Assembly (NCBI GenBank): GCA_965220385.1 | Contig: OZ244825.1 | Location: 2,441,142-2,505,141 of the forward strand | DNA length: 64,000 bases | From: Candidatus Poribacteria bacterium | Lineage (GTDB): Bacteria; Poribacteria; WGA-4E; PCPOR2b | Reading direction: 5' to 3' | Part shown: positions 14,108 through 49,262 of the stretch, piece by piece | Numbering within the stretch: position 1 is the first letter of the stretch | Layout of the letters: each line of letters begins with the position of its first letter | The notes under the pieces: model-generated | What the model saw: the letters and a program-made list of their open reading frames with translations, nothing else | Database searches by the model: none | What the model was told of the DNA's origin: nothing | Made by a program: the position numbers and the translations under genes

Positions 14108-14968
14108 TCACTCAACTGTGGGACCGTCCCCAGCTAAGGTTGTGCGGTGAAGAACGCGCTTGTACTTCCCACGATCCCAAGACCGTCCCCGGTGTAGACA
14201 GCAACGGTTATCGTACACAACAAGGTCATGTGCCCGCCATCGGTGGCGATACACAAACTGCCGTTGTGTTGCCCATTCAAGGAGTTCTTTCAGCAGGGCT
14301 TGCCCCTCTTCGGTTGGTAAGTCGTGAACGTGGGTTGTGTATGACCCGACCAAGAGCGCCCTCTTTCCGGTTTCGGGGATGGTGCGCACCAAGCGGTGAT
14401 CAACCGGTGGGGTATCTTTCTGGAACGCGTCACTCATCAGGTTCGGAGCAATCTGCGCCCGTGAGTATGCGATGCTATGCTCGGCGATTAGTTCCTCGAT
14501 ATCTGCTTTTTTCTTGTCAGGCAGGGCTGCATAGGCGGCAGTAAGACTGGCAAACTCAGTTTCACCCCCTTCAGGCGGCACAATCTTGGCAGAAAGTAAG
14601 GAGCCACGCAAGGGTACACGCTTGAACGAGCCATCGGAGTGCCAGAGCGTGTTGGCAACAGTATAAAGTGTCCGGGGATCTTCCGGCGGAATGATGTCGC
14701 CTTTTTCGTCGAGGTTGGAGATTACCCCAATAGGTCCACCGTCACCGATTGGGTCATTTGGCATCGTCATTTCGAGTGGGCCAAACCCTTCGCTGAACGT
14801 CACGTGCTGCGCGTCAGTGATTTCTTGATCGTGGAATACGAGCACTCCATACTCGCAGAGCGCACCGCGAAGTTGCTCAAATGTTTCTGCATCGATGGCC
14901 GAAGTGATGTCAACACCTTCCACTTCCGCCCCAATATAATCTTCCAATTTCCTAATTGTCAGAGCCAT
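14108..14968 (-). CDS. TauD/TfdA-family Fe(II)/2-oxoglutarate dioxygenase
   Basis: The 286-aa ORF has HxD…H ligands (WHSDGSF, …H near the C-terminus) in the TauD fold order. The RBS is GAGGA. Confidence 0.8.
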   Translation of the reverse strand: MALTIRKLEDYIGAEVEGVDITSAIDAETFEQLRGALCEYGVLVFHDQEITDAQHVTFSEGFGPLEMTMPNDPIGDGGPIGVISNLDEKGDIIPPEDPRTLYTVANTLWHSDGSFKRVPLRGSLLSAKIVPPEGGETEFASLTAAYAALPDKKKADIEELIAEHSIAYSRAQIAPNLMSDAFQKDTPPVDHRLVRTIPETGKRALLVGSYTTHVHDLPTEEGQALLKELLEWATQRQFVYRHRWRAHDLVVYDNRCCLHRGRSWDRGKYKRVLHRTTLAGDGPTVE

Positions 14969-16182: not shown

Positions 16183-17175
16183 CTACAGCCCCAACGCTTC
16201 CGCCTGCCTACAAGCGGACTGAATGAGATTCCGCACCCGATCGCCCTTATTGTGCTCCGGTCGTTCATGCAGCCAGCCTAACAGTGCCAGTGACCGGATT
16301 AACAGGAACATCGGAAGTAGCTCAATAGCGGCTTCAGAAAGAGCGCGCTCCGAACGGTAGCCTGCAATGAGTGCGTCGCGAGCGACCTCGAAATGGGGTG
16401 GCTTCCGATACGCGTCGAGTGCAACGGCAATTTCGTACTGATGCCAGCCGAAACCAGAGTCGTCAAAATCGATTACGTGCAACTGCTCTCCGTTGACGAG
16501 CAGATTATGAGGGTGCAGATCCGCGTGGATTAGGCTATACGTTCCTCCCTCTTTGCCGTAGTCGGACAGCACACGATGGATGGCACGACGGGCATTGAGG
16601 ATATGCTCCCGCTCCGCTGCTTTCATCTCTGGTAGGATCCAAAAGGGACCCCAAAAGGGCGTATCTCCCATAAAACCGTCCGCATCGAATGCGTGTCGTT
16701 GGAAACCTTCCGGAATCTGCCAACTGACCGCCTGATTGTGAATTCTGGCAGCGATGTGTCCGAGTTGGTTGAAATGCAGCGCGAGCGCTTCCATATCGGG
16801 TGCCTGATCCATGATGCTCGATAGCGTTACCCCATCAAACCATTCAACAATTCCGACGTGCCGGGTTTCCGTTGATTTAGGCACGGGAACTGTCGCGTAG
16901 CCACGACCATCACGGGTCAGTCGGGGTAACGGCACACCTATACCCGCCCGTTTCAGCGCAGCTGTCCACTGCTGCTCGGAGTTCAGTTCCGCGAGCGTAT
17001 GATAGCCGGGCCGATGGATGCGAAGCACATAGGTTTCGCCGGCATCTGTATCAACACGAAACACGGTGTTTTCAGAGATAGAGATTAGCTTTAGCTGCAC
17101 GGCAGAAATATCCCATTCGTCCAACGCTCGCTCGGCAATCGCCCGCAATGTGTCGCGGTTAAGGGGCTGTGCCAT
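16183..17175 (-). CDS. aminoglycoside/choline-kinase-type phosphotransferase (APH family; homoserine-kinase-II/hydroxylysine-kinase-like)
   Basis: A Brenner motif HADLHPHNLL and the DFDDSGFG Mg-binding loop are present. The start MAQPL (GGAGGAG RBS) overlaps the upstream aminotransferase stop by 17 nt. Confidence 0.75.
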   Translation of the reverse strand: MAQPLNRDTLRAIAERALDEWDISAVQLKLISISENTVFRVDTDAGETYVLRIHRPGYHTLAELNSEQQWTAALKRAGIGVPLPRLTRDGRGYATVPVPKSTETRHVGIVEWFDGVTLSSIMDQAPDMEALALHFNQLGHIAARIHNQAVSWQIPEGFQRHAFDADGFMGDTPFWGPFWILPEMKAAEREHILNARRAIHRVLSDYGKEGGTYSLIHADLHPHNLLVNGEQLHVIDFDDSGFGWHQYEIAVALDAYRKPPHFEVARDALIAGYRSERALSEAAIELLPMFLLIRSLALLGWLHERPEHNKGDRVRNLIQSACRQAEALGL

Positions 17176-18442
17176 AAATCTCCTCCACGATCTCTGCGAA
17201 CGCGGTGAGGAACAGATCGGCGTGTTCACGAGAAAACACTAAGGGCGGACGAATCTTGAGAACATTGCGCAGTGATCCGGCACTGCCGATAAGAAAACCT
17301 TTGTCCTTCAGGCGATTGACGAATACCGTGGCACCATCACGGTCAGGTGTTTTAGTGTTGTGGTCACTTACCCATTCCAGCCCGATGAATAGTCCGTGTC
17401 CACGAACTTCTGCCATAGGTGGACAATGCGGCTGAAGTTTGGTCAATTCAGAGCGGAGATAATCACCAACACGGGTAACATTCTCTCGCAGATTCTCAGT
17501 TTCTATCACGTCTAACACTGCCATACCTACCGCCGCCTGTAACGGACTGGAAGCAAAGGTATTGAAGTAGCGTTTACGGTCGCGGAAAGTATCCACCAGT
17601 TCCGTTCGCGCAACAGTCCCAGCCAAGGGCAGTCCGTTACCCATCGGCTTGCCCATTGTGACAATGTCCGGCACGAAGTCCATCACCTCGTAACCCCACC
17701 AGCTGCCCGTCCGACAGAAGCCTGCCTGTACCTCGTCTGTGATGAACAGCCCCCCTGCATTGCGAACCATTTCGGCTGCCTTTGGCATAAAACCGTTCGG
17801 GATATCGGGCAGACCTTCGTTGGCGAGGATCGGACAGACCAACATACCCGCAAAGGGGATATTATTGGCAGCAAAACTGTCAAGTGCCATGTGGACTTCC
17901 GATAGGTAGAGATCGGTCAATTCGGATTCCGATACGCCTTCTCGCAACGGACGGTAACGCTGCGGATACGGGATCGGGTGAATCTCAGGATCCCCATCCC
18001 TGGCGCGTGTGAGCTTGCCGACCTCTGCACTGTTACCGTGATACGCCGCATCGGTGCAGATGATCCCCCGTCCGCCGGTTGCGATACGAGCCATGCTCAG
18101 GGCGACTTCGTTGGCTTCTGTTCCGGTACAGGTGAACACAACACTTGCCAACTCCTCGGCGTGTTGGTTGGTCAGACGCTCGGCATAATCGAGAACGCCT
18201 TCGTGCAGATAACGGCTGTGGACGTTGAGTGTACTTGCCTGCCGATGCATCGCTTCGACCACATGCGGGTGGCAATGCCCCACACAGGGGACATTGTTGT
18301 ACATGTCAAGATAGCGATGTCCATCAGGATCAAACAGCCATACCCCTTCTCCACGCACGATGTTGACTGCCTCTTGGTAGAAAAGTGGTGTCCCGGTGCC
18401 TAGCAGTCGTTCACGACGTGCAAGTAAGTCGGTTGTCGTCAT
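17159..18442 (-). CDS. class-III (ornithine/GABA-type) PLP-dependent aminotransferase-like protein
   Basis: The protein is about 427 aa and has class-III aminotransferase architecture, including a PLP-binding Lys region (…TMGKPMGNG). The start is MTTTD with a GAGGA RBS. Confidence 0.8.
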   Translation of the reverse strand: MTTTDLLARRERLLGTGTPLFYQEAVNIVRGEGVWLFDPDGHRYLDMYNNVPCVGHCHPHVVEAMHRQASTLNVHSRYLHEGVLDYAERLTNQHAEELASVVFTCTGTEANEVALSMARIATGGRGIICTDAAYHGNSAEVGKLTRARDGDPEIHPIPYPQRYRPLREGVSESELTDLYLSEVHMALDSFAANNIPFAGMLVCPILANEGLPDIPNGFMPKAAEMVRNAGGLFITDEVQAGFCRTGSWWGYEVMDFVPDIVTMGKPMGNGLPLAGTVARTELVDTFRDRKRYFNTFASSPLQAAVGMAVLDVIETENLRENVTRVGDYLRSELTKLQPHCPPMAEVRGHGLFIGLEWVSDHNTKTPDRDGATVFVNRLKDKGFLIGSAGSLRNVLKIRPPLVFSREHADLFLTAFAEIVEEIYGTAP

Positions 18443-18544
18443 AATTTCCTCGTTTGGTAATCTGTAATTGCAATTTTTGGTCCCTGCTTTGTTTCTCACC
18501 CGATCCCCTTATCTATCTTTGCACATCGTTCTTCAGGGATGCAG

Positions 18545-20167
18545 CTACCTGTAGCAGACATGTAATTCAACCTTTTCAATCTGGATATGTCCGAAAGCCG
18601 CAGGTAGCTGCTGCTTTAACCCCACACCGACGAGATTGGCGCCCACCGCAAGGTAACCCGGTTTTACAGCAAAAATCAGCCAATTCTTAAAGGTCTCATT
18701 TGAAGTTTCTACTGTTTCAGTGTGAGGAGCATCGAGAAGGATGTTATTCAACCTCACCTCGACCCTTGATCCAAGGGTCTCAAGTCTTTCGTCCAAAGAT
18801 AAAGCCTCACCCGCCTCATCAGAGATAGCTATTCGTAGCGTTATCTGATCAATTTCTGTTGAAGCAGCGTTCACATCATCTGCTACGTTCAGCGTGAGCA
18901 GCCTGTCTTCCTTACCATCACCCTCCAACGCTGCGGGCAATGATGCTAGCATGTTGGTCTGGAAATACATGTGCCGAGGGGTATTCCAGTTCGCCGGCGA
19001 TGGCACGACATATTCAGCGTGTCCACCGCCGCGCCGTTCAACAAAAAATACCTTGTCCACCTCTTTGAGCGTTGCGGGTCTGCCAATTTCACTGAAGATT
19101 TTGCGCTGCGTTTGCCACCTGGGCGAGGGGCTAAGATCCAGATTTTCTGCCGATTGTGGGGAGGACACCATTAAATTGAAGGTGTGCATACCGTCCGGAT
19201 TCTGACGCCACCAGTTTGCGCAGGCTCCGCGCCAGATTTCGAGGTCCGGTTCTCTATACCCATCGGTGGAGTGGTGATCGTCAAAGCTGGGGTAGAGTTT
19301 GATAGGGGTTTCGTTGGTGATATGGCGAAAGGCAGCGATATCCGCGTTCGCCGTGCGTGTGCCAACCACGAAAATATCGACCAGAAAATCTTGTGCCCAA
19401 GCTTCCACGTCCATACCGTCGAAGTGGCAGCCCATGGGATCTTCCGGAACGCGGGCTGCCAACAGCAATGGTCGTCCACGTTTTTCCCCAATGTCGAGCA
19501 GTGTGGTGCGTATATCGCGCATGAAATCGGTCAGTATATCACGGTGCAACCACTGCTCCTCCGGGAACAGCACCGGGATCCGTGCGAAATCGATATGGAT
19601 GCCGTCGAAGTCGTACATCTCCGCTACTTCGCGTACTACGTTCAGCTTCAGGTCACGAACCCCCTTAAAGGAAAAATTCCAGTAGGGGTGCCACTTATAA
19701 ATTAGCCAGTCCGGATGCTCAGCTTTTAACGGAATCGGCTGATCAAACGGGCGAGGCGGATCAAACATATCGTCGTTGTCCGATCCGTTGATTCGGTAGG
19801 AGAAAAAAACCTCCCGTCCACGTTTCTTTGCCTCGGTCAACAGTACCTCCACCGGATCTATGCCGATTTCCCACCACCTCGGAAAGACATTCTCGGTATA
19901 CGGAATCACGTCACTGGGCCAGACCGCTGTATTCCCTTCACCCCACTCAAACCAGATGCTGTCGATCTGGTTCGGATGTTGGTCAAGGCGACTCATGTAA
20001 AAGTCGATGATTTTCTTTAACCGTTCTGTTCCAACCTCATCAGTCCTGAATACGTCGTTAGCCAACACATCGTCTTGGAAGATAATTCGACGCTGCCGGT
20101 TGATAGCTTCAATATGTTCGGGGCTGATAGTCAGTCCGTTATGAGCCGCTGCATCTGATGAATTCAT
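18545..20167 (-). CDS. glycoside-hydrolase-like family 10 (GHL10/DUF187-type TIM barrel) protein
   Basis: The motif DGIHIDFARIP matches the GHL10 DG(V/I)HLDYIRYP signature. The start is MNSSD with a GGAG RBS 6 nt upstream. Confidence 0.5.
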   Translation of the reverse strand: MNSSDAAAHNGLTISPEHIEAINRQRRIIFQDDVLANDVFRTDEVGTERLKKIIDFYMSRLDQHPNQIDSIWFEWGEGNTAVWPSDVIPYTENVFPRWWEIGIDPVEVLLTEAKKRGREVFFSYRINGSDNDDMFDPPRPFDQPIPLKAEHPDWLIYKWHPYWNFSFKGVRDLKLNVVREVAEMYDFDGIHIDFARIPVLFPEEQWLHRDILTDFMRDIRTTLLDIGEKRGRPLLLAARVPEDPMGCHFDGMDVEAWAQDFLVDIFVVGTRTANADIAAFRHITNETPIKLYPSFDDHHSTDGYREPDLEIWRGACANWWRQNPDGMHTFNLMVSSPQSAENLDLSPSPRWQTQRKIFSEIGRPATLKEVDKVFFVERRGGGHAEYVVPSPANWNTPRHMYFQTNMLASLPAALEGDGKEDRLLTLNVADDVNAASTEIDQITLRIAISDEAGEALSLDERLETLGSRVEVRLNNILLDAPHTETVETSNETFKNWLIFAVKPGYLAVGANLVGVGLKQQLPAAFGHIQIEKVELHVCYR

Positions 20168-20420
20168 AATAGTCTCCAGCGATTTCAAAGTCTTGCGTCC
20201 AGTTACGGATAGCATAGTTGCATCAGAAATTATATCAAAACCAAGAGAGATTTAGAACAGAAATCGTGAGTTGACAGGAGCCCACAGAGCGAACGCGGAT
20301 TCAACATTTTGCTCATTTTTCTGGCATAGCCCATGTTAAGAAGTTGTGCGACAGAATCGGTACTTCCTATCCCGACTGTACTCAGAAACTGATGAACAGT
20401 GGTGTTCACGTTTTACAGCC

Positions 20421-20580
20421 TGTCCCGCCTGCCTGCTCCCGGCTTGTCGGAGTCCCGCCTGTCCCGCCTGTCCCGATTTATCGGGGATTTATCGGGGATT
20501 CATCGGGCCTGCCCCGCCTGTCCCGATTTATCGGGGATCCTATCGGGCCTGTCCCGATTTATCGGGGGGATTTATCGGGG
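20421..20580. repeat. composite intergenic palindromic repeat element (family A; core GTCCCGATTTATCGGGGA units)
   Basis: Multiple units of CCCGCCTGTCCCGATTTATCGGGGAT sit in a divergent intergenic region. The same modules recur at 36731..36818 and, reverse-complemented, at 46796..46950. Confidence 0.8.
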
Positions 20581-20607: not shown

Positions 20608-20636
20608 TTGACAGGTGCTGGATTCTTGTGTATGAT
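20608..20636 (+). promoter_or_regulatory. sigma70-type promoter, TTGACA-17 nt-TATGAT, upstream of the Ldh_2-PhyH-PhyH-VOC cluster
   Basis: Exact TTGACA at 20608-20613, a 17-nt spacer, and TATGAT at 20631-20636. The start codon lies about 60 nt downstream with a GAGGAGAAGGAG RBS. Confidence 0.6.
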
Positions 20637-20696
20637 AGTTATCACGACTGACGTAGTTCGATCTCGCTACACGTTAGAGGAGAAGGAGTCAAAGCT

Positions 20697-21773
20697 ATGG
20701 CAGAAATGCACTGTTTCAACGCAAGCTATCTGCATGCAGTGACGCGACAACTGTTTCTGGCAGCGGATACGCCGCGTCATATCGCTGAGGATGTCGCTGA
20801 AATCTTGATTAACGCCAACCTCGCTGGGCACGATTCGCACGGCGTGCTCCGCATCCCCGGCTATCTAAGCAGTATCTCAAGTGGGGGGACTCAACCTGCC
20901 GCTGAACCAGGGGTGTCCAACGAAACCACCAATACCTTCCGTATTGACGGGAGGGACGGTTTTGGACACTACACTGCTCGACAGGCAATGGAACGGGCGA
21001 TTGAGAAGGCAAAGGCTGCGGATACCTGTGCTGTGAGTTTTATCAATACCGGGCATATCGGTCGACTCGGTGAATATGCGGAGCAGGCGACACGTGCGGG
21101 GTGTATCGGCATCATCACCTATGGCGGCGGTGCACGGGACAGAGGGGGTACTGTGCCTTTCGGGGGCGCGCGCGGTGCTCTCGGCACCAATCCGATTGCG
21201 GTCGGTGTGCCAACCGGGGACGACTGTCCATTCATCATTGATTTTGCTACCAGTATGATTGCCGCGGGTAAAGTTTCGGTCGCTGCAAGCATGGGTGTTG
21301 ATCTGCCTGAAGGTTGTATTGTGGACAAGCACGGCAACCCTAGCGTTAAGACAGCGGACTTCAGTGATGGCGGATCTCTGTTAGCGTTTGGTGGGCATAA
21401 GGGTTACGCATTCTCCCTCCTTGTATCCTTGTTCGCCGGTCTGTCTGGTAACTTTGATATTGAGGCCGCTTCCATGGGCAGTAACACGTTGATGCAGGTT
21501 ATCAACATCAGTGCCTTTACGCCATTAGAACCTTACCAACAGGGGGTTCGCGCGTTTCTCGACGGAATTAAGGCTATACCATCTGCACCCGGTTTTGACG
21601 AAGTGCTGGTTCCGGGTGACTTTGAATATCGTTCCCGCTCCCAACGACTTGCTGACGGGGTCAATGTTCCCGATACTATCTATCGTCAACTTCAGGAATG
21701 CGCGGAAAAATTGAACTTCTCCCTGAGCGAAGATCTTGTCGAACCCGCCGATGCGGAACGATACCAAACGTGA
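20697..21773 (+). CDS. Ldh_2-family (malate/L-lactate dehydrogenase family 2) NAD(P)H-dependent oxidoreductase
   Basis: The 358-aa ORF carries the GHDSHG motif typical of the Ldh_2 family, which includes ureidoglycolate, sulfolactate and Pip2C/Pyr2C reductases. Confidence 0.8.
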   Translation: MAEMHCFNASYLHAVTRQLFLAADTPRHIAEDVAEILINANLAGHDSHGVLRIPGYLSSISSGGTQPAAEPGVSNETTNTFRIDGRDGFGHYTARQAMERAIEKAKAADTCAVSFINTGHIGRLGEYAEQATRAGCIGIITYGGGARDRGGTVPFGGARGALGTNPIAVGVPTGDDCPFIIDFATSMIAAGKVSVAASMGVDLPEGCIVDKHGNPSVKTADFSDGGSLLAFGGHKGYAFSLLVSLFAGLSGNFDIEAASMGSNTLMQVINISAFTPLEPYQQGVRAFLDGIKAIPSAPGFDEVLVPGDFEYRSRSQRLADGVNVPDTIYRQLQECAEKLNFSLSEDLVEPADAERYQT

Positions 21774-21789
21774 AACGGAGGAAAATACT

Positions 21790-22650
21790 ATGGATGCCGA
21801 ATGTTTACAGCACGTTCTGACAGAGGAAGAGCGCGCCAATTTTGAGCGGGACGGATTCATTGTGGTCAAGGATGCCCTGCCGGCTTCAATGGTTGAAGGG
21901 CTTGTTGAGGTAGTAGACCGTCTTGGTGCCTGCGAAGACTTTCTGGGGAAGGATGATCTACTGCTGGAACTCATCGATTGGCACCGGACATTTCCCAAAG
22001 TTTGGGGAATTCTCGGCTGGAACATCCACTCCTACTACACGCAGATGCTCGTTACGCCTCCAGAGGATGAGGAGCACCAACGTACAAAGCACAGACGAGG
22101 CTGGCATCAGGACAGCGACCGCATAAACGCCGATATCGAGCCGGGACCCCAGCCACGTATCTCAATCAAAGTGGGATACTTCTTGACAGATCTCACACAG
22201 GGTGGATACGGCAACTTTAGCGTGCTCCCTGGGAGCCAGCTCAAAAGAGAGATTGAATTACCTGCCGATGGGGTTTCGGATCCAGAGGAAGCGATAGAGA
22301 TTAAAGGACCGGCGGGGACTGCGGTCATTTTCGATCGGCGACTCTTTCACGCACGCGGCTGGAACCTGTCCGAGGTGACACGAAAGGTCCTGTTCGTAGG
22401 CTACAGCCATCGATGGATCCATCCGAGAGATGAGCGAACGGTAGCGCATGTTATGGAGCGTTCTAATCCAATCCGCAGACAGCTGCTCGGTGCGAAAACA
22501 CGGGCAATGGGCACCTCATCGCCTTCGGACAAGGACGTCCCGCTTCGTTCCTGGATTAAGGAACATTTGGGCGAAGAGGTAGTTACCGATAACTACGCTC
22601 GCATTGTTGGTGCACCTTCGGTAACTTTTGGACGAAACCACACCCAGTGA
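21790..22650 (+). CDS. PhyH-family Fe(II)/2OG dioxygenase (first member of a tandem pair)
   Basis: The start MDAECLQH follows a GGAGG RBS. It is about 65-70% identical to the next ORF and contains HxD (WHQDSD) and a distal His. Confidence 0.75.
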   Translation: MDAECLQHVLTEEERANFERDGFIVVKDALPASMVEGLVEVVDRLGACEDFLGKDDLLLELIDWHRTFPKVWGILGWNIHSYYTQMLVTPPEDEEHQRTKHRRGWHQDSDRINADIEPGPQPRISIKVGYFLTDLTQGGYGNFSVLPGSQLKREIELPADGVSDPEEAIEIKGPAGTAVIFDRRLFHARGWNLSEVTRKVLFVGYSHRWIHPRDERTVAHVMERSNPIRRQLLGAKTRAMGTSSPSDKDVPLRSWIKEHLGEEVVTDNYARIVGAPSVTFGRNHTQ

Positions 22651-22772
22651 TTTGTCATAACCACGCAAGTTGACAAGTTTGCCGTAGAAGCTTTACCTCG
22701 ATTAGGGACGGATATGTGAAAGATTGAGTTCCATTCGACAAAAACCAATCGGATGGAGTGAGGAGGTTGATC

Positions 22773-23597
22773 ATGGATAGCGCATGTTTGGAACACTGTT
22801 TAACAGAGCAAGAGCGTACCCAGTTTGAACGAGATGGATTCATTGTAATCGAGAACGCACTTCCAGCGCAAATGGTTGAAGGGCTTATCAATGCTGTGGA
22901 CAGCGTGAAAGCCGGCGTGGATTTCATAGGCAAAGATGATCGATTCCTAGAACTGGTCGATTGGCACCGAACCTTTCCCAAAGTCTGGGGCATACTCGGC
23001 TGGAACATCCATCTGTACCACACACATATCACAGTGACGCCGCCAGTACCATTGGAAGATAGGCCCTCAAAGAAGCGCCTTCACTGGCATCAGGACAGTG
23101 GTCGCGTGAATTTAGACATTGAAACGATACCCGCACCACGCATTTCTGTGAAGATAGGCTATTTCCTAACCGATGTTTCTGAAGGAGGACGGGGTAACTT
23201 TAGCGTGATACCCGGTAGCCATCTGGTGGATGAGGTTGAATATCCCGCCGATGGTGTTTCCAATCCACCGGAGGCGCATGAGGTTCGCGTCCCTGCGGGC
23301 ACAGCGGTCATCTTTGACCGTCGGATTTGGCATGCGGGCGGGTGGAATTTCTCGGATATTACACGCAAGGTGCTATTCGTTGGCTACAGTCTCCGATGGT
23401 TCCATCCGAGGGATGCGATGACCGTCTCTCACTACATGGATCGATGCGATGCGATCCAGCGGCAGTTGCTCGGCTCGAAAACTGGTAACTTAGGACTAAC
23501 GTCGCCGAGAGAGGAAGATGTTCCGCTTCGTGAATGGATGCGAGAGCACTTGGGTGAGGAGTCAATCGCTGATCGTTCAGCCAGAAATCTCACGTAA
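22773..23597 (+). CDS. PhyH-family Fe(II)/2OG dioxygenase (second member of the tandem pair)
   Basis: The start MDSACLEH follows a GAGGAGG RBS. It is a paralog of 21790..22650. Confidence 0.75.
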   Translation: MDSACLEHCLTEQERTQFERDGFIVIENALPAQMVEGLINAVDSVKAGVDFIGKDDRFLELVDWHRTFPKVWGILGWNIHLYHTHITVTPPVPLEDRPSKKRLHWHQDSGRVNLDIETIPAPRISVKIGYFLTDVSEGGRGNFSVIPGSHLVDEVEYPADGVSNPPEAHEVRVPAGTAVIFDRRIWHAGGWNFSDITRKVLFVGYSLRWFHPRDAMTVSHYMDRCDAIQRQLLGSKTGNLGLTSPREEDVPLREWMREHLGEESIADRSARNLT

Positions 23598-23678
23598 CCC
23601 TTTCGCGCCGATCTACATAAATGCAGCTGCGCGAACTGGCTGTTTGGATTGACGGCGACTTAGGAAAGGAAGGCCCTT

Positions 23679-24107
23679 ATGGGTAATGCTAAGCTCGTTT
23701 TTGAGCATATCCACATTATCAGTGAAGACCCGCAGGTCGCTGCCGAATGGTATGTAGACATGCTGGGCGGAGAAATCGCTGAGACGTATGAACTCCGTGG
23801 TGCCCCTCAAATTGCCGTTGTTTTTGAGGGGATAACTCTCCTTATCCGCGGGCGGCGACCGGGTGAAAGTCCGGACAAGACAAACAGTATACAATCCTTC
23901 GGGGATTTTGCCAGCCACAATGAGTGGGGTATGGATCACTTTGCCTTCCTTGTACACGGAGACCTCACGGAGTTCTGTAACGAACTGAAGAAGAAAGGTG
24001 CTACTTTCTCTATCGAACCTCACGATTCAATTGGCAGTACTTGGGGCGGTAGTCTTGCCTATCTTAATGCCCCTGACGGGGTGAGTGTAGAGCTGCTCCA
24101 AGCGTAA
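23679..24107 (+). CDS. VOC-family (glyoxalase/bleomycin-resistance/extradiol-dioxygenase fold) protein
   Basis: The 142-aa ORF has the two-module beta-alpha-beta-beta-beta pattern, with His/Glu metal positions in HIHIIS…E and HFAFLV…E. Confidence 0.7.
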   Translation: MGNAKLVFEHIHIISEDPQVAAEWYVDMLGGEIAETYELRGAPQIAVVFEGITLLIRGRRPGESPDKTNSIQSFGDFASHNEWGMDHFAFLVHGDLTEFCNELKKKGATFSIEPHDSIGSTWGGSLAYLNAPDGVSVELLQA

Positions 24108-24289
24108 ATATGACGCGAATTAAACATTATCGTCTGAAAATTGAGTTTTCCAATCCCTGACCCGCTAACAGGTTAATTGAGACTTGACTTCTACGGAGTG
24201 GATGTGTTACAGTTACGCATATTGTTTGTACTCAACCATTGTTTAAGTGTTGACTGCCATCTACAGCAGGATATTAAGGAGATTAAATA

Positions 24290-24418
24290 ATGTACCGTCC
24301 ACAGCTTATCAACAATCGTTTCTCTTCGCGGCTTAGCGGATTTCTCAATCTAGCTTTGTTCCGATTGCGTCTCGATTTGACCTTGCTGCGCGTGGTGGGC
24401 GGTAGTGCACCGGATTAA
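24290..24418 (+). CDS. candidate 42-aa small ORF (Leu/Arg-rich) with strong SD; hypothetical
   Basis: TAAGGAGAttaaataATG, then 42 codons, then TAA. A rho-independent terminator follows about 35 nt downstream. The ORF is below the size cutoff of the ORF track. Confidence 0.2.
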   Translation: MYRPQLINNRFSSRLSGFLNLALFRLRLDLTLLRVVGGSAPD

Positions 24419-24451
24419 TATACAAGCAGACTTACTTGTAATCCCTTGACT

Positions 24452-24497
24452 AACAGCCCATCATCGAGCCGCTTTCGATGGTGGGCTTTTTATTTAT
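24452..24497 (+). terminator. rho-independent terminator
   Basis: Stem CCCATCATCGA/TCGATGGTGGG with a GCCGCTT loop, followed by CTTTTTATTTATTT. Confidence 0.55.
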
Positions 24498-24887
24498 TTG
24501 AGGGGTGCTCATAAGTTGCTTTCGATGTGGCAGGTAGGATCAAGACCTGCCACACACCACCCTCGGTATTGTGGCGCGAAGGTGCCATGCCCAAATCCAG
24601 TGAGGACGCGCCTTGAGCGATGATCCTCCCTGATTTTTAGGAGTGAATTTACGGTTGTAATTTGGCAGGGAAACAGCAGAGCAAAAAAACAATGGCCGCA
24701 GCCGCTTGTGGGGCAGATTAGGAAATCTGCCTCCACGTATGGCAGTGGTTCTGCAGGTCGAGATTCATATCTCGACACTGCGGTGTCGATTTTGGAAAAT
24801 CGACCTACAACTCGGTTGCATTTGGAAGGTTATAGATGACGTCCATTGATTCCCTAGTGCTTTTACAAATTTCTCTAAGAGACAACA

Positions 24888-25013: not shown

Positions 25014-27563
25014 ATGCAAAGACACACTTATGACCCTGCCGCTATTGAACCGAAATGGCAAAACATTTGGGAGGAACGTAAGACGTTTCGTACGCCGGAC
25101 GATCCCAGAGCGTGGGAGGGAAAACCGAAGTACTATATCCTCGATATGTTTCCTTACACCTCCGGCGCAGGGCTCCATATTGGACACCCCGAAGGCTACA
25201 CAGCTACAGATGTGCTGGCGCGTATGAAGCGGATGCAGGGCTACAATGTGCTGCACCCAATGGGTTGGGATTCGTTTGGGCTAACCATTGAACGCACCGC
25301 GGAGCGGGAAAACATCCATCCTGCCATCGTCACGGAGCGCAACATCGATAAGTTTCGTCAGCAGATTAAGCAGATCGGTTTCTCGTATGATTGGGACAGA
25401 GAGGTGAGCACTTCCGCGCCCAACTACTATAAATGGACACAATGGATCTTCCTCAAGCTTCATGAGAAAGGATTGGCATACCTCGCCGATGTACCGGTCA
25501 ACTGGTGTCCTGCGTTAGGAACAGTTCTTTCTAACGAGGAGGTCAAGGATGGAAAGTATGTAGAAACCGGTGATCCCGTTGAGCGGCGGTTGATGCGGCA
25601 GTGGATGCTGAAAATTACTGCCTATGCTGACCGACTCTTAGAGGATATTGAAGAGGTGGACTGGCCCGAAGGTATCAAGGAGATGCAACGGAATTGGATC
25701 GGAAAGTCAGAGGGGGTAGACGTAGATTTTGCAATCAAGGACACCGACGCCGAATTTACCGTTTTCACAACGCGACCCGATACGCTATTTGGTGCAACAT
25801 ATTGCGTCTTTGCACCGGAGCATCCATTAGTTGAGCAGATGACAACGGATGCGCAGCGGTCTGCTGTGCAGGCGTATGTTGACGAGGCGAAAAACAAAAC
25901 AGATCTCCAGCGGACGGATCTCGCCAAAGAGAAAACCGGTGTTTTCACGGGTGCCTATGCGATCAACCCCGCAAATGATAAAGCGATCCCAATTTGGGTT
26001 GCCGACTATGTGCTGATGGGTTACGGTACAGGCGCAATCATGGCGGTTCCCGCTGAGGATGATCGTGACTGGGACTTCGCAAAGACATTTGATCTGCCAA
26101 TCGTTCGGACTGTGCAACCGCCAAGCGATTTCGGGGACGAACCGTATCTCGGCGATGGTCCCTCAATTAACAGCGGGTTCCTTAACGGACTGAATATTCA
26201 GGAGTCGAAAGAACGGATGACCCAATGGCTTGAAAGTGAAGGGAGAGGGAGTGCCCAAGTACAGTACCGCTTGCGCGATTGGCTCTTTTCCCGCCAACGC
26301 TATTGGGGAGAACCCTTCCCCACTGTGGAGTTAGAAGATGGGACAATTATGCCCCTACCTGAGGGCGAGCTTCCAGTGGAACTGCCCCCTATTGATGAAT
26401 ATAGACCCACCGCGGATGGTAAGCCGCCCCTCGCTCGCGCCTCGGACGACTGGCTGATGATTACCCTACCAGATGGACGGAAAGGGGTGCGGGAAACAAA
26501 TACAATGCCCCAGTGGGCGGGATCTTGCTGGTATTACCTGCGATACATGGACGCCCATAACACGAGCGAAGCGTGGTCTGCCGAAGCAGAGCGATATTGG
26601 ATGCCGGTGGATCTCTATGTCGGTGGCGCCGAACACGCTGTCCTACACCTGCTCTACGCGCGTTTTTGGCACAAGGTACTGTATGATTGCGGTCTTGTTT
26701 CTACGAAAGAGCCGTTCCAAAAACTGTTCAATCAAGGGATGATCCTCGCCTACTCCTATCAGGACGACAACGGGAAATATTACTCGCCTCACGAGGTAGA
26801 AGAGCGAGATGGAGAGTGGGTTGTCAAGGAGTCCGGGGTGCGGACAAACACGCAGATCGAAAAGATGTCCAAATCTCGTTTCAATGTCGTAACGCCGGAG
26901 GAGGTCATCGAAGAGTATGGAGCGGACGCGCTGCGCCTCTATGAACTCTTTATTGGTCCCCTCAGCGTCAGCGCACCGTGGCAGACGCGCGGTGTGGAAG
27001 GTGTCTATCGATTCCTGCAGCGGGTGTGGCGGCTGGCGATTGACGAGGACACCGGGCAACTGAGCGGTAAGCTGACCGATGCGCCCATTGATAGTGATAA
27101 GGAACTGTGGAAAGTGCTAAATCAGACCATCAAGGATGTCACCGAGGATACGGAATCAATCGACAAGATGAACACCGCTATCAGTCACATGATGGTGTTT
27201 GTCAATGCAGCGACACAGGCGACAACAGTATCGAAAGAAACGATGAAGACATTCCTGCGGCTGCTCTCTCCCTACGCCCCACATATCGCTGAGGAGATTT
27301 GGCAGCGGTTCGGGGAGGCCGAGTTAATTGCGTACGCCCCTTGGCCCACCCACGATCCCGATGTCCTTAAGCGCGAGGAGGTCACCATCGTTGTCCAGGT
27401 CAACGGCAAATTGCGCAGCCGAATCGAACTACCCGTTGATGCAACCAACGAGGAGGTTGAGGCAGCAGCCCTCGCCGACGACCGTATCCAAAAGCATATT
27501 GAAGGGAAGACGGTGAGGAAGTTCATCGTTGTGCCTAACCGACTCGCGAATATTGTGGTTTGA
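25014..27563 (+). CDS. leuS: leucine--tRNA ligase
   Basis: The 849-aa ORF has a HIGH motif (HIGHPEGY), a KMSKS motif (KMSKSRFN), and CP1 editing and anticodon-binding domains. The architecture is typical of bacterial LeuRS. Confidence 0.97.
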
Positions 27564-27670: not shown

Positions 27671-28489
27671 ATGCTCACAGAACAACAGGTCAGTCACTTT
27701 AACACCTTTGGATTCCTGATCTTCCGGCAATTATTTAACCCGGAGGAGATAAAAACCATCAATGCTGAAGTTGAGTCGAGGCTCGCGTCTACGAAACGCT
27801 TTACAGCTCCCGATGACGCTCCCGCCTATATGAGTTGGCCCAATTTAGGTCCCGATACATCTTTCCTCGCAGGGTTGCCGGAGGACCCGCGCATCTGCGG
27901 CACAGCGGAGCAGCTGTACGGAGAAGATGCGATTGGTCTCTCTTGCAATGCTGGCAGCTACGTGAACCAAACCCACTGGCACCCCGATGCCAGCGATTTC
28001 CACCTTTACGGGTTCAAATTTGCTCTCTACCTACAACCTCTGAGAGCGCACGACGGCGCATTACGGTTCATTCTGGGTTCGCATCGCAGACCCTTTCACG
28101 ATGAAGTCCACCAGAATATTGGTGACTCAGTGCAGAACGTGGGTGATTTTCCTGCCTACGTCTGTGAGACAGAACCGGGGGATGTCGTCGCTTTTGACTT
28201 TCATCTCTGGCACGCCAGTTCGGGTGGTTCGACAGATCGACGTATGGTCTCGATTATCTTCATCAGGAATCCTCAAACTCCCGAAGAGGAGAAAGCTACC
28301 CGCAAAGCCGCCGTGGAAAATGTCCAACTCCGAGCAACGCTCGCTCGAAATACCTTTGATACACCCGGACCAGAATACCATCCCCACTGGCTCGAAAATC
28401 CTCGAAAGAGCCCAAAGCGACAGCATTGGATAGATCGGATGGGGGAATTGGGGTATCTGAACGCACCCCAGCCTTTATCAACGAGTTGA
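27671..28489 (+). CDS. PhyH-family Fe(II)/2OG dioxygenase (first member of a second tandem pair)
   Basis: The start MLTEQQVSHF follows a GAGGAGG RBS. Motifs HWHPD and GSHRR are present. Confidence 0.75.
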   Translation: MLTEQQVSHFNTFGFLIFRQLFNPEEIKTINAEVESRLASTKRFTAPDDAPAYMSWPNLGPDTSFLAGLPEDPRICGTAEQLYGEDAIGLSCNAGSYVNQTHWHPDASDFHLYGFKFALYLQPLRAHDGALRFILGSHRRPFHDEVHQNIGDSVQNVGDFPAYVCETEPGDVVAFDFHLWHASSGGSTDRRMVSIIFIRNPQTPEEEKATRKAAVENVQLRATLARNTFDTPGPEYHPHWLENPRKSPKRQHWIDRMGELGYLNAPQPLSTS

Positions 28490-28547: not shown

Positions 28548-29348
28548 ATGCTCACGGAACAACAGGTGAACCACTTCGATACCTTCGGGTTCCTAATCTT
28601 CCGGCAGCTGTTCAGTCCGGAGGAGGTGAAAACCATTAACGCAGAGTTTGAACACGCCTTAACCTCTGCCTACCGCCACGCTCCATTTGATGGCACCTAT
28701 AGACATTGGGTTCGGACAATGGGCCCTGAAACTCCATTCTTCGCTGGATTGCTTGAAGATCCCCGTTTCTGCGAACCGACAGAGCAGTTGTACGGTGAAG
28801 ATTGCCTCGGTATCGTTTCTGATGCCAATCGTTACGTCGGTCACACACGCTGGCATCCAGACCACCTTGTCGATCCAACGGAAGATTGTTACGGCGTCAA
28901 ATTCGCGTACTACCTCGAACCGGTCGGCGCAGAAACTGGGGCGCTGCGACTGATTCCAGGTTCGCACAAGGATCCATTACATAGTTCACTGCGAGAAAAT
29001 CTGGACAGTTATCAGCTTGAGATTTGCGACGTTCCAGCTTACATCTGTGAATCCGAACCGGGTGACGTCGTCGCCTTCGATGTCCGTTGTTGGCATGCAA
29101 GTTGGGGCGGCGCGATTGACCGGCGGATGTGCACCGTAGTCTACTATAAGAATCCCAAAGGTCCTGAAGAGGAAGCAGCAACCCGCAAGCGAGCCACTAA
29201 CAGTGTGAAGGAACCAAATAACTCTGGGCTGCCCTTTGAGACCCATCGCGATATCATGCGCCACTGGACTGCCAATCATGAAGGTAGCGCAAGACGTCAA
29301 CGCTGGATCGATCGTGAACGAGAACTTGGATTTCTAGACTATCTTTAG
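28548..29348 (+). CDS. PhyH-family Fe(II)/2OG dioxygenase (second member of the second tandem pair)
   Basis: MLTEQQVNHF is about 60% identical to the preceding ORF. The RBS is GGGGAGG. Confidence 0.75.
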   Translation: MLTEQQVNHFDTFGFLIFRQLFSPEEVKTINAEFEHALTSAYRHAPFDGTYRHWVRTMGPETPFFAGLLEDPRFCEPTEQLYGEDCLGIVSDANRYVGHTRWHPDHLVDPTEDCYGVKFAYYLEPVGAETGALRLIPGSHKDPLHSSLRENLDSYQLEICDVPAYICESEPGDVVAFDVRCWHASWGGAIDRRMCTVVYYKNPKGPEEEAATRKRATNSVKEPNNSGLPFETHRDIMRHWTANHEGSARRQRWIDRERELGFLDYL

Positions 29349-36548: not shown

Positions 36549-36730
36549 GGCGTTACTTTATACATAACTATCAAACGAAAATCGGAATAAATTGAATAAT
36601 TCCGCTGATATGGCTAACTAACGAATATAGCAAGGTAGTCATTATGTTAGGGCTTACGCAGCTAAACGGTTAAAGCCCTGTAGTTCGGCGATTCATCGCC
36701 GCTGAACACCGTTTCCAACGCCCGTTTCTT

Positions 36731-36818
36731 AATCCCGCCTGCCTGCTCTCGGCTTGTCGGAGTCCCGCCTGTCCCGATTTATCGGGGATTCATCGGGGAT
36801 AAGTCGGGACAGGCGGGC
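36731..36818. repeat. intergenic palindromic repeat element (family A copy)
   Basis: CCCGCCTGTCCCGA…TCGGGACAGGCGGG inverted arms flank TTTATCGGGGATTCATCGGGGATAAG. It shares CCCGCCTGCCTGCTCYCGGCTTGTCGGAGTCCCGCCTGTCCCG with 20421..20580. Confidence 0.8.
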
Positions 36819-36887
36819 AACTACAATCGAAGTGCGTAAGTCCTGTATGTTTGGGTGTTATGTAAAAAAGGAAGGAGGCTATTCCAC

Positions 36888-46784: not shown

Positions 46785-46795
46785 ATGCGGGCACC

Positions 46796-46950
46796 ACCCC
46801 GATAAATCCCCCGATAGGATCCCCGATAAATCGGGACAGGCGGGGCTCCGACAAGCCCCCGATGAATCGGGACTAAGAAGCGAGAGCAGGTCCCGACTCG
46901 CCGGGATTCTCCCCGATACATCGGGGCAGGCAGGAACGGAACAGGCGGGA
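46796..46950. repeat. intergenic palindromic repeat element (family A, inverted orientation)
   Basis: CCCGATAAATCGGGACAGGCGGGG…CGGGACTAAG… are reverse complements of the 20421 and 36731 modules. The element lies between convergent genes. Confidence 0.8.
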
Positions 46951-48308: not shown

Positions 48309-49202
48309 TTACTCTTCCCACCGATACATCTTCTTCGGCGTGGTATCCGCCTTCGCTGCATCCCACGCCTCGATCCAAGCCTGATGATCGTGTGTCACAC
48401 ACTCCGGCTGTTCACGGCTACGCACCTTAATCCCAGGCAACGGTCTGCCCCCCGGTTTCCGTGCATCGTGCCAGCGCAGATCTAAACTCCAGCGAACCGC
48501 GTCCGACAGGTTCGGCAGTGAGCCGTGTGGGGTGCGGCAGTGGATGAAGATCACCCCGCCTTTCTTCACCGGTATCGTGACTGGCTCGCCTTCGGGCATT
48601 ACCTCTGGAGCAATCGTCCAGCCGTAGGGACATCTCACATGCCTCCGAATCTCGCCGGAATGCAGTTCTGGATAGAGGTGGATCGTTCCATTTTCTTCGG
48701 TTGCGTCTACAAGAGGAATCCACGTCGTCACAACGAGCGTATCGTCCGCCTCCGGCATTAGCACAGCGGCATCCTGATGGAATGGTGACTGTTGTATCCA
48801 GTTGTCATACCCGTCCCCCATCAGAGGTTCGGGCAATTTTGGTCGCACATGATGCGTTGGATTGCAATAAATCTCTGGTCCGATAATCGGTTCAAGCAAA
48901 TCGAGCAGATTGGTATTATGCAGAAAATCAAAGACCGGACGACGAAGATTCACAGGAAACGACACCTGGCCCTGAAGGGGATCTCCCGATTCCTTCGTCA
49001 GCCAAGCGATGCGCCGGTTAAAGGGTTGGTCCTCATGACGTTCCTGTATTTTTCCATCCGCGTATAACTCCTCAGCGATGGTATCAATAAGCGTCTCAAA
49101 GTCTGCAATCAACGGATTCAGATCATCATTGTCTAACGCGTCTTCTACAACCAGATAACCGTTCGTGTGAAAGGATTCGACCTGTGCTTGTGTAAGTCCC
49201 AT
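48309..49202 (-). CDS. PhyH-family Fe(II)/2OG dioxygenase
   Basis: The start MGLTQAQVESFHTNGY follows a GAGGA RBS. An HQD motif and a distal His are present. Confidence 0.7.
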   Translation of the reverse strand: MGLTQAQVESFHTNGYLVVEDALDNDDLNPLIADFETLIDTIAEELYADGKIQERHEDQPFNRRIAWLTKESGDPLQGQVSFPVNLRRPVFDFLHNTNLLDLLEPIIGPEIYCNPTHHVRPKLPEPLMGDGYDNWIQQSPFHQDAAVLMPEADDTLVVTTWIPLVDATEENGTIHLYPELHSGEIRRHVRCPYGWTIAPEVMPEGEPVTIPVKKGGVIFIHCRTPHGSLPNLSDAVRWSLDLRWHDARKPGGRPLPGIKVRSREQPECVTHDHQAWIEAWDAAKADTTPKKMYRWEE

Positions 49203-49262
49203 TGATAGGTCCTCAATCTGTGATATTTCACTCGTTAATTTAATGAACAAATGAACCAGCTT

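Follow-up and report, generated by a model that had tools for sequence, protein, structure and literature searches.

Ldh_2, PhyH and VOC genes behind a conserved promoter in Poribacteria, and PhyH-Ldh_2 pairs in marine metagenomes

Sponges harbour Poribacteria as dominant, uncultivated symbionts, and no Pfam family is more abundant in the genomes of these bacteria than PhyH, which makes up more than 1.9% of genes; its function there is almost wholly unknown, and almost no role is known for the individual genes (PMC3909097). What, then, do PhyH genes do when they stand in an operon with enzymes of other families? This question is raised by a locus in a 64,000-nt stretch (hereafter the window) of contig OZ244825.1 from a Candidatus Poribacteria bacterium, in which two genes for PhyH-type Fe(II)/2-oxoglutarate (2OG) oxygenases, PhyH-A and PhyH-B, lie between a gene for an Ldh_2-family NAD(P)-dependent oxidoreductase and a gene for a VOC (glyoxalase-fold) protein. 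We regard the locus as a real, clade-restricted operon of uncharacterised members of three known superfamilies. In our judgement the chances are about even that a conserved sigma-70-type promoter drives here the Ldh_2 gene, a core PhyH-B, an accessory PhyH-A and the VOC gene, and that the PhyH and Ldh_2 enzymes act consecutively. What is new here is that a PhyH gene of the same subfamily stands directly beside a YiaK-like Ldh_2 gene in six marine metagenome contigs.

Conservation of the four-gene unit and its promoter

A sequence-only reading of the window had proposed a near-consensus promoter and a strong ribosome-binding site in front of four tightly spaced genes, and all of these features were recovered. 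The promoter (TTGACA-17-TATGAT, + strand, 20608 to 20636, with hexamers at 20608-20613 and 20631-20636) matches the sigma-70 consensus at 11 of 12 positions, a level reached by no other site between 16 and 29 kb. Across the whole window, both strands included, three sites reach this level (0.69 expected from shuffled sequences), and open reading frames (ORFs) start just downstream of all three. The ribosome-binding site of the Ldh_2 gene, GGAGAAGGAG, occupies 20679 to 20688 on the + strand, 8 nt before the ATG at 20697. All four genes lie on the same strand, separated by 16, 122 and 81 nt, and each has a ribosome-binding site of its own, of the GGAGG type before both PhyH genes. Between 20637 and 24107 we found no terminator-like hairpin on the + strand and no further promoter match of at least 9/12. 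From 24107 to 24455 there was no terminator-like site, the first terminator after the operon being a hairpin upstream of leuS; since none comes sooner after the VOC stop codon (24107), transcripts from 20637 may end at that hairpin. Rfam and tRNA scans of the region from 15 to 30 kb gave no matches. With one promoter, a common strand, short gaps, no internal terminator and an order conserved across genomes, the locus has the properties expected of an operon, and we infer that the four genes form a single transcription unit.

We used the Ldh_2 protein to scan one genome per GTDB species. Orthologues at 84-98% identity were found in 17 species-representative genomes or metagenome-assembled genomes, all of them from Poribacteria. 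The order Ldh_2-(PhyH-A)-PhyH-B-VOC, with the same orientation, is found in the window and in 17/17 genomes, and it holds even where the identity of LeuRS is down to 77-78%. In the window and the 17 loci alike, the two hexamers, the spacer length and the position relative to the ATG (-89/-90) are invariant; 14 of the 17 loci also have the same ribosome-binding site, and the other three differ in it by one base. Because the promoter is invariant in sequence and position, whereas the DNA preceding it can no longer be aligned between several of these loci, the comparison provides good evidence for a functional promoter, beyond a chance match. The family assignments, confirmed by Pfam matches, the single conserved promoter and the operon-like layout put forward in the sequence-only reading were thus upheld. 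Its four-gene synteny was also recovered, and proved to be confined to one clade of Poribacteria.

The unit is not uniform in content. PhyH-A is absent without remnant from four of the 17 genomes (L012, L019, L021 and L022). In L021 a whole upstream block of kinase, aminotransferase and GHL10-like genes is also absent, with an acetamidase-like gene in its place, and L019 has no GHL10-like gene; both keep the order Ldh_2-PhyH-B-VOC. Since PhyH-A is missing in four genomes and the upstream block in one, the comparison points to promoter-Ldh_2-PhyH-B-VOC as the conserved core and to PhyH-A as an accessory gene. A more distant contig (L056), which begins 80 nt before its first PhyH gene, carries the array PhyH-A'-membrane protein-PhyH-B' (82% identity)-VOC (71%)-acetoacetate-decarboxylase-like gene.

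PhyH-Ldh_2 pairs outside the clade

Contigs from Joint Genome Institute metagenomes were scanned with an alignment of the PhyH proteins, which gave 80 loci at 50-62% identity (71 after removal of near-identical ones). An Ldh_2 gene lies directly downstream of PhyH, on the same strand, in five of them (L061, L064, L086, L106 and L110), and one gene further in L070. The distances between PhyH and Ldh_2 in these marine loci range from overlapping to a few nt, often an overlap or 3 nt. Three of them (L086, L106 and L110) have an extra, distant PhyH gene in front, resulting in the order PhyH-PhyH-Ldh_2. These six were the only Ldh_2 ORFs in the 80 loci, and all lie within two genes downstream of PhyH; with near-identical loci removed, Ldh_2 accounts for 6/203 ORFs within two positions of PhyH and for 0/200 beyond (Fisher p=0.016). 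Consistently, in a Pfam census of 117 immediate-neighbour proteins Ldh_2 was found four times, tied with sulfatase, SGSH_C, GFO_IDH and acyl-CoA dehydrogenase as the top non-PhyH family, and it did not rank in the first 25 families among 130 distal control proteins.

The six marine Ldh_2 proteins are 66-82% identical to one another and 27-32% identical to the Ldh_2 of the window. Five of them best match the model of the YiaK-type 3-dehydro-L-gulonate 2-dehydrogenase, at about 176-198 bits (cut-off 316); the sixth, from L070, has no clear preference among the YbiC, YiaK and sulfolactate models, its scores on the three being about equal. Two Ldh_2 subfamilies have thus been recruited beside one PhyH subfamily, in opposite gene order. 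As six marine contigs pair the same PhyH subfamily with Ldh_2, the coupling is not confined to Poribacteria. We consider this adjacency in two Ldh_2 subfamilies the strongest evidence for a functional pairing, probably reflecting a genuine small pathway. That PhyH and Ldh_2 work together, as the sequence-only reading had suggested, therefore gains from both comparisons, the order kept in 17 genomes and the second Ldh_2 subfamily adjoining the same PhyH subfamily. The same reading had named a lack of conserved synteny, together with PhyH proteins grouping with lipid hydroxylases, as what would speak against it; the four-gene synteny turned out to be clade-confined, the PhyH-Ldh_2 pair not.

Several observations weigh against a functional link. 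The 17 genomes share their gene order throughout the region, including leuS and two further PhyH genes downstream, and for this reason an order conserved among such close relatives is weak evidence of shared function. The co-transcription of the four genes is itself deduced from their layout. A single ancestral cluster probably gave rise to all six marine loci, which would then count as one extra event, not six. Eight look-ups of PhyH-B relatives (58-85% identity) revealed no Ldh_2 or VOC neighbour, and the closest relatives outside the clade (77% and 85%) are among those standing without either. VOC relatives outside Poribacteria, looked up at 56-67% identity, are linked to neither PhyH nor Ldh_2. 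A search of the literature on PhyH/Ldh_2 pairing found nothing relevant.

These observations bear on the possibility that the genes are co-transcribed, or merely adjacent, and functionally unrelated, two ubiquitous PhyH genes happening to lie between Ldh_2 and VOC. Two PhyH genes side by side are less remarkable in a phylum where the family takes up more than 1.9% of genes (PMC3909097), and in a window with at least six PhyH ORFs. Moreover, the four-gene order occurs in collinear close relatives only, and homologues looked up elsewhere have other neighbours, save in the six marine contigs and L056. On the other hand, the promoter is single and invariant, the spacing is tight, and the unit is retained where its flanks have changed (L019 and L021). 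The more distant L056 likewise has PhyH-B and VOC together, and a second Ldh_2 subfamily independently adjoins the same PhyH subfamily. We therefore find an accidental assembly unlikely, and favour an operon in which PhyH and Ldh_2 act together.

The encoded enzymes and their possible substrate

The Ldh_2 gene (20697 to 21773, + strand) encodes 358 residues matching PF02615 over its full length (E=2e-93; 313.5 bits against a gathering score of 38.8; model positions 3-333 of 333). The motif GHDSHGVLR is found at residues 44-52, and the segment SHGVLRIPGY aligns with the same segment of DpkA, YbiC and ComC; by this alignment, the catalytic His and the carboxylate-binding Arg of the SHG-x-x-R segment are present. 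The protein shares the full-length PF02615 domain, the conserved His-Gly-x-x-Arg and a length of about 350 residues with the named enzymes of the family, YbiC (2g8y), ComC (2x06), DpkA (1wtj), AllD and YiaK. Of these, YbiC is from E. coli, ComC is the archaeal sulfolactate dehydrogenase, DpkA the Pseudomonas delta1-pyrroline-2-carboxylate/delta1-piperideine-2-carboxylate reductase, AllD the ureidoglycolate dehydrogenase and YiaK the 2,3-diketo-L-gulonate reductase. Unlike them, it cannot be assigned a substrate: it scores 131-166 bits to the non-YiaK structures (142 for DpkA, 166 for ComC and for YbiC) and 72 to YiaK (HMMER). It also falls under all NCBIfam equivalog cut-offs. The best resemblance is to the YbiC-type model (252 bits; 336 needed), followed by sulfolactate dehydrogenase (200/500), ureidoglycolate dehydrogenase (165/356), a further named-enzyme model (160/496) and YiaK (108/316).

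Exact-sequence look-ups of this protein and of the database protein 100% identical to PhyH-B returned no recorded gene. Paralogs of Ldh_2 in Poribacteria (60-75% identity) are not systematically beside PhyH and have other neighbours instead. The family has itself multiplied in the phylum (L026-L047), where Ldh_2 genes commonly stand as tandem pairs, placed either behind an Amidohydro_2 gene or between genes for a DUF4159 protein and an 840-residue WD40 protein.

The two PhyH genes are PhyH-A (21790 to 22650, + strand, 286 residues; PF05721, 50.1 bits) and PhyH-B (22773 to 23597, + strand, 274 residues; 61.3 bits), both against a gathering score of 22 and both matching the model over positions ~108-212 only. 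The start of PhyH-B (ATG at 22773) is confirmed by its 274-residue identical match in the databases. The two proteins had been described as paralogs about 65-70% identical, each with a GGAGG ribosome-binding site, in agreement with the 65% that we measured over 271 residues. Residues H106, D108, H187 and R198 of PhyH-B are invariant in 50 homologues and correspond to the HxD...H iron triad and the 2OG-binding Arg. Beyond these ligands, the invariant basic residues are K70, R111, R123, K127, R184 and R208. Both paralogs carry WHQDS and (F/W)HA.

The AlphaFold model of PhyH-B (pLDDT 88.1) predicts the double-stranded beta-helix fold of the PhyH type. Its top 50 Foldseek matches all have a probability of 1.00, and the named ones (SptF, TlxI/J, FtmOx1, SnoN, SyrB2, MysH, AndA and GriE) are Fe/2OG dioxygenases at 17-20% identity. 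With the ectoine hydroxylase EctD, human phytanoyl-CoA hydroxylase (PHYH), GriE and TlxI/TlxJ the protein shares the beta-helix, the HxD...H motif and an Arg 11 residues past the distal His; it differs from them in its low identity (17-20%), a TM-score of about 0.67 and uniformly low profile scores. In a profile search of the Protein Data Bank (PDB), EctD obtained 40 bits, TlxI 37, GriE 36 and PHYH 34, so that the paralogs side with neither the small-molecule nor the lipid hydroxylases. On the ectoine hydroxylase equivalog (TIGR02408) PhyH-B reaches 20.3 bits against a cut-off of 336.5, and PhyH-A has no match. PDB searches with the window proteins by sequence, profile and fold gave remote, non-discriminating matches only.

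PhyH-A and PhyH-B belong to a large, uncharacterised PhyH subfamily. When 1.84 billion representative proteins were searched with its profile, 366 clusters (50% identity) matched at E<=1e-30, and 1331 at the looser limit of E<=1e-10. In a neighbour-joining tree PhyH-B falls in a short-branched clade with P0034, and PhyH-A groups with solitary homologues of 286-294 residues (e.g., one behind a GH32 gene in L001), not with PhyH-B. A recent tandem duplication is ruled out by this tree, in which the two are old paralogs brought together. Among the nearest structures of PhyH-B are TlxI and TlxJ, PhyH-fold paralogs whose heterodimer has been solved (7vbq). By analogy, a PhyH-A/PhyH-B heterodimer is conceivable, although it would not be obligatory, since four genomes have PhyH-B alone.

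The only characterised PhyH-family enzyme of Poribacteria is a 2'-O-methyl-nucleoside demethylase (PMC12709175). Among the characterised enzymes tested it is the best match of PhyH-B (23% identity, 47 bits). The FJS/PHYHD1-type demethylases share with PhyH-B the Pfam family, the phylum and the WHQDSG iron motif (PMC12709175), but at 23% identity PhyH-B clearly belongs to another subfamily, and the operon contains no orthologue of the tested Poribacteria enzyme.

Two minor observations concern PhyH genes in and around the window. The PhyH ORFs that we counted are at 1599-2372, 21790-22650, 22773-23597, 27671-28489, 28548-29348 and 48309-49250(-). Those at 27671-28489 and 28548-29348 form a second adjacent pair, downstream of leuS and about 52% identical, and a TauD-family dioxygenase is encoded at 14108-14968(-). 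The four further PhyH ORFs and the TauD-family gene illustrate the expansion of Fe/2OG oxygenases in Poribacteria. The other observation is that genes of the acetoacetate decarboxylase family (Pfam ADC) are recurrent partners of the PhyH-B lineage and missing in the clade of the window: one follows a PhyH-B-like gene in L004 (10426-11274), and in L056 (3734-4195) a fragment sharing 92% identity with that gene comes after the PhyH-B-like and VOC genes.

The VOC gene (23679 to 24107, + strand) encodes 142 residues (PF00903, 35.3 bits against a gathering score of 20.6). H10, E63 and E138 are invariant in 44 homologues and H87 is present in at least 90% of them; from the fold, these four positions are the predicted metal ligands (H/E/H/E). 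The structural model has a pLDDT of 84.5, and its top Foldseek structures are glyoxalase I-like at 16-24% identity, with the antibiotic-binding TnmS1 and the oxidase ChaP-H2 among its structural neighbours. The VOC fold and the H/E/H/E positions are shared with glyoxalase I and methylmalonyl-CoA epimerase; in contrast to those enzymes, the protein is far under both equivalog cut-offs (TIGR00068, 22.4/120; TIGR03081, 21/115).

On which class of compound could these enzymes act? The neighbourhoods of PhyH relatives suggest, weakly, sugars, sugar acids or ribosides rather than amino or imino acids. Around the marine PhyH-Ldh_2 pairs we found genes for an NAD-dependent epimerase, a GDSL esterase and an O-methyltransferase (L064), and for a BBE-type FAD oxidase (L070). 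The PhyH-PhyH-Ldh_2 arrays of L086 and L110 are flanked by GFO_IDH oxidoreductases and an IU-type (inosine-uridine) nucleoside hydrolase, with a Kelch/NanM-like protein in L110. The nearest PhyH-B relative from outside the clade, at 85% identity in L057, is surrounded by genes for a lactonase, two MR_MLE proteins of the enolase superfamily, an aldo-keto reductase and an SDR protein. Other neighbours of PhyH relatives are GH32, sulfatase, GFO_IDH/GH109-like and GHL10 proteins. A recurrent array consists of PhyH, GFO_IDH/GH109-like and GHL10-like genes with a divergent family-5 solute-binding protein (L095 and L100/L101); apparently the same PhyH-GFO_IDH-GHL10 array is found in L090 and L094, where the PhyH gene is mis-called. 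No amino-acid-specific partner was found in the neighbourhoods examined. Poribacteria are generally rich in carbohydrate-active genes, and GFO_IDH is equally frequent beside PhyH and in the distal control (4 vs 4), so much of the carbohydrate theme may be genomic background. In addition, no protein of the operon reaches any NCBIfam equivalog threshold, and no solved structure is closer to PhyH than 17-20% identity. Two observations stand apart: the GHL10-like genes two genes downstream of PhyH echo the divergent GHL10-like gene upstream of the window operon, and the nucleoside hydrolase of L086 and L110 is of interest given that some PhyH-family enzymes demethylate 2'-O-methyl nucleosides (PMC12709175).

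We propose that the PhyH oxygenase and Ldh_2 would catalyze consecutive steps on one small polar metabolite. PhyH would oxidize a C-H bond, in a hydroxylation or in an oxidative O- or N-demethylation, and Ldh_2 would interconvert a 2-hydroxy and a 2-oxo (or 2-imino) carboxylate produced or consumed in the adjacent step, the two forming a two-step module resembling alpha-oxidation. The VOC protein would be a clade-specific addition, most likely catalyzing a proton transfer of the glyoxalase I or epimerase type on the same alpha-oxo/alpha-hydroxy carbonyl intermediate, and the accessory PhyH-A could broaden specificity or serve as a heterodimer partner. The substrate would most likely be carbohydrate-derived, and a sugar acid, a modified sugar or a riboside is weakly suggested. 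Judging from their sequences, the enzymes are likely to be competent: the Fe/2OG ligands of PhyH, the His/Arg motif of Ldh_2 and the H/E/H/E positions of VOC are all kept. A comparable logic is known from E. coli, where CsiD, a glutarate 2-hydroxylase, is an Fe/2OG oxygenase that makes a 2-hydroxy acid, and the neighbouring product LhgO, an L-2-hydroxyglutarate oxidase, oxidizes it to the 2-oxo acid. The analogy is functional: PhyH and Ldh_2 are from families unrelated to these, and the 2-hydroxy-acid product of PhyH is supposed. In its widest form, the proposal would be that the PhyH subfamily and its adjacent Ldh_2 constitute a widespread, undescribed marine catabolic module acting on a carbohydrate-derived or riboside-type metabolite, by demethylation or hydroxylation followed by 2-hydroxy/2-oxo redox; this we put forward tentatively, and hold to be rather doubtful.

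The sequence-only reading had instead favoured hydroxylation plus reduction of a cyclic imino or amino acid. The PhyH enzymes would hydroxylate proline, pipecolate or an ectoine-like compound, and Ldh_2 would be a delta1-pyrroline/piperideine-2-carboxylate reductase of the DpkA type. Consistent with this, the Ldh_2 segment SHGVLRIPGYLSS is closely similar to SHGIFRIPGYLSS of DpkA, the leucine hydroxylase GriE is among the nearest PhyH structures, and EctD is the best match in the PDB of the PhyH subfamily profile. That match covers the N-terminal half only, however, and PHYH nearly equals it (34 vs 40 bits), while the ectoine hydroxylase equivalog stays at 20 bits of the 336 needed. DpkA likewise scores under ComC and YbiC (142 vs 166 bits), the operon contains no dehydratase, racemase, cyclodeaminase or amino-acid transporter, and five of the six marine Ldh_2 partners best match YiaK, a sugar-acid model. 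With no specific support left, an imino-acid pathway seems to us quite unlikely.

Another route would join the operon to the divergent genes upstream, an APH-type kinase (16183-17229, - strand) and a class-III aminotransferase-like protein (17159-18499, - strand), which overlap each other. Both find their best NCBIfam match in PRK06148/PRK06149, with scores under the cut-off (E=6.5e-121 and 1.6e-108). These models span about 1000 positions; the kinase matches their N-terminal part and the aminotransferase their C-terminal part, so the models represent kinase-aminotransferase fusions. They are related to hydroxylysine kinase and phosphohydroxylysine phospho-lyase. This suggests that 16183-18499 encodes a kinase and phospho-lyase pair acting on an amino alcohol. 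In the joined route, PhyH would hydroxylate an amine, the kinase would phosphorylate it, the phospho-lyase would eliminate, and Ldh_2 would carry out the redox step on the resulting carbonyl. The block is upstream in 16 of the 17 genomes, but L021 keeps promoter-Ldh_2-PhyH-B-VOC without kinase, aminotransferase or GHL10-like gene. The block also lies on the opposite strand, with the GHL10-like gene between it and the operon, and no kinase or aminotransferase was found beside PhyH relatives elsewhere, so we judge this route highly improbable. We give almost no credence to a natural-product tailoring or self-protection set, with PhyH modifying a secondary metabolite and VOC as a bleomycin-resistance-type binding protein: the nearest structures of PhyH-B are tailoring oxygenases (SptF, FtmOx1, AndA, TlxI/J, SnoN and SyrB2) and those of VOC include TnmS1 and ChaP-H2, but at 17-20% identity the structure matches mirror the choice of proteins crystallised so far, genes of the PKS, NRPS, terpene or RiPP type are absent nearby, and VOC keeps the four metal-ligand positions typical of enzymes.

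If the PhyH subfamily and Ldh_2 do form a marine catabolic module as proposed, working it out would provide the first biochemical explanation for part of the PhyH expansion in Poribacteria, unexplained since 2014. The locus offers a concrete handle on that expansion: its promoter is strong and conserved, its core oxygenase is accompanied by a dehydrogenase, and the same kind of partner recurs in free-living marine bacteria. Its four small soluble enzymes could reveal which host- or seawater-derived compound the symbionts oxidize. Should the substrate prove ordinary, the locus would be one more lineage-specific catabolic operon, and in neither case a surprising kind of system.

Flanking elements

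Divergent from the operon, a 556-residue GHL10-like protein is encoded at 18545 to 20215 on the - strand (PF02638, 26.4 bits, just under the cut-off of 27.9). Its gene is upstream in 15 of the 17 genomes and is possibly associated with the operon, though outside its transcript.

Downstream, a separate unit precedes leuS (24184 to 24497, + strand), with a promoter-like TTGACT-18-TACAGT, an AAGGAG ribosome-binding site, a Leu-rich ORF of 42 codons (24290-24418, 10 Leu) and a 14-bp hairpin followed by a T-run; leuS itself is at 25014-27563. By motif search the ORF was recognised in the window and at 11 of the 17 related loci; its length is 42 codons throughout, with 8-11 Leu. The sequence GTGGTGGGC (24391-24399) is nearly a copy of the terminator's 3' arm and could pair with the 5' arm. 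This geometry resembles that of a Leu-dependent leader-peptide attenuator; a small protein gene or a small RNA are possible alternative readings. An antiterminator gained no support from simple thermodynamics, as constrained minimum-free-energy folding always kept the terminator, and the unit has no Rfam match. The 314-nt segment between hairpin and leuS (24498-24811) is missing in L011 and most relatives, and for this reason we regard it as an insertion specific to the window genome.

Between the divergent GHL10-like and Ldh_2 genes, outside the operon, lies a repeat block (20417 to 20579) with units GCCTGTCCCG and ATTTATCGGGG. It appears to be a recent insertion or expansion, because L009 lacks it, although the intergenic DNA flanking the site is 97-99% identical there. 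More generally, a family of short palindromic repeats (unit CCCGATTTATCGGGG, flanks GCCTGTCCCG) is dispersed in intergenic DNA, with 8 matches in the window against 0.32 expected. Its members are also found at 36720-36820 and 46790-46950, and in L013, L015, L017, L019, L023, L024 and L028.

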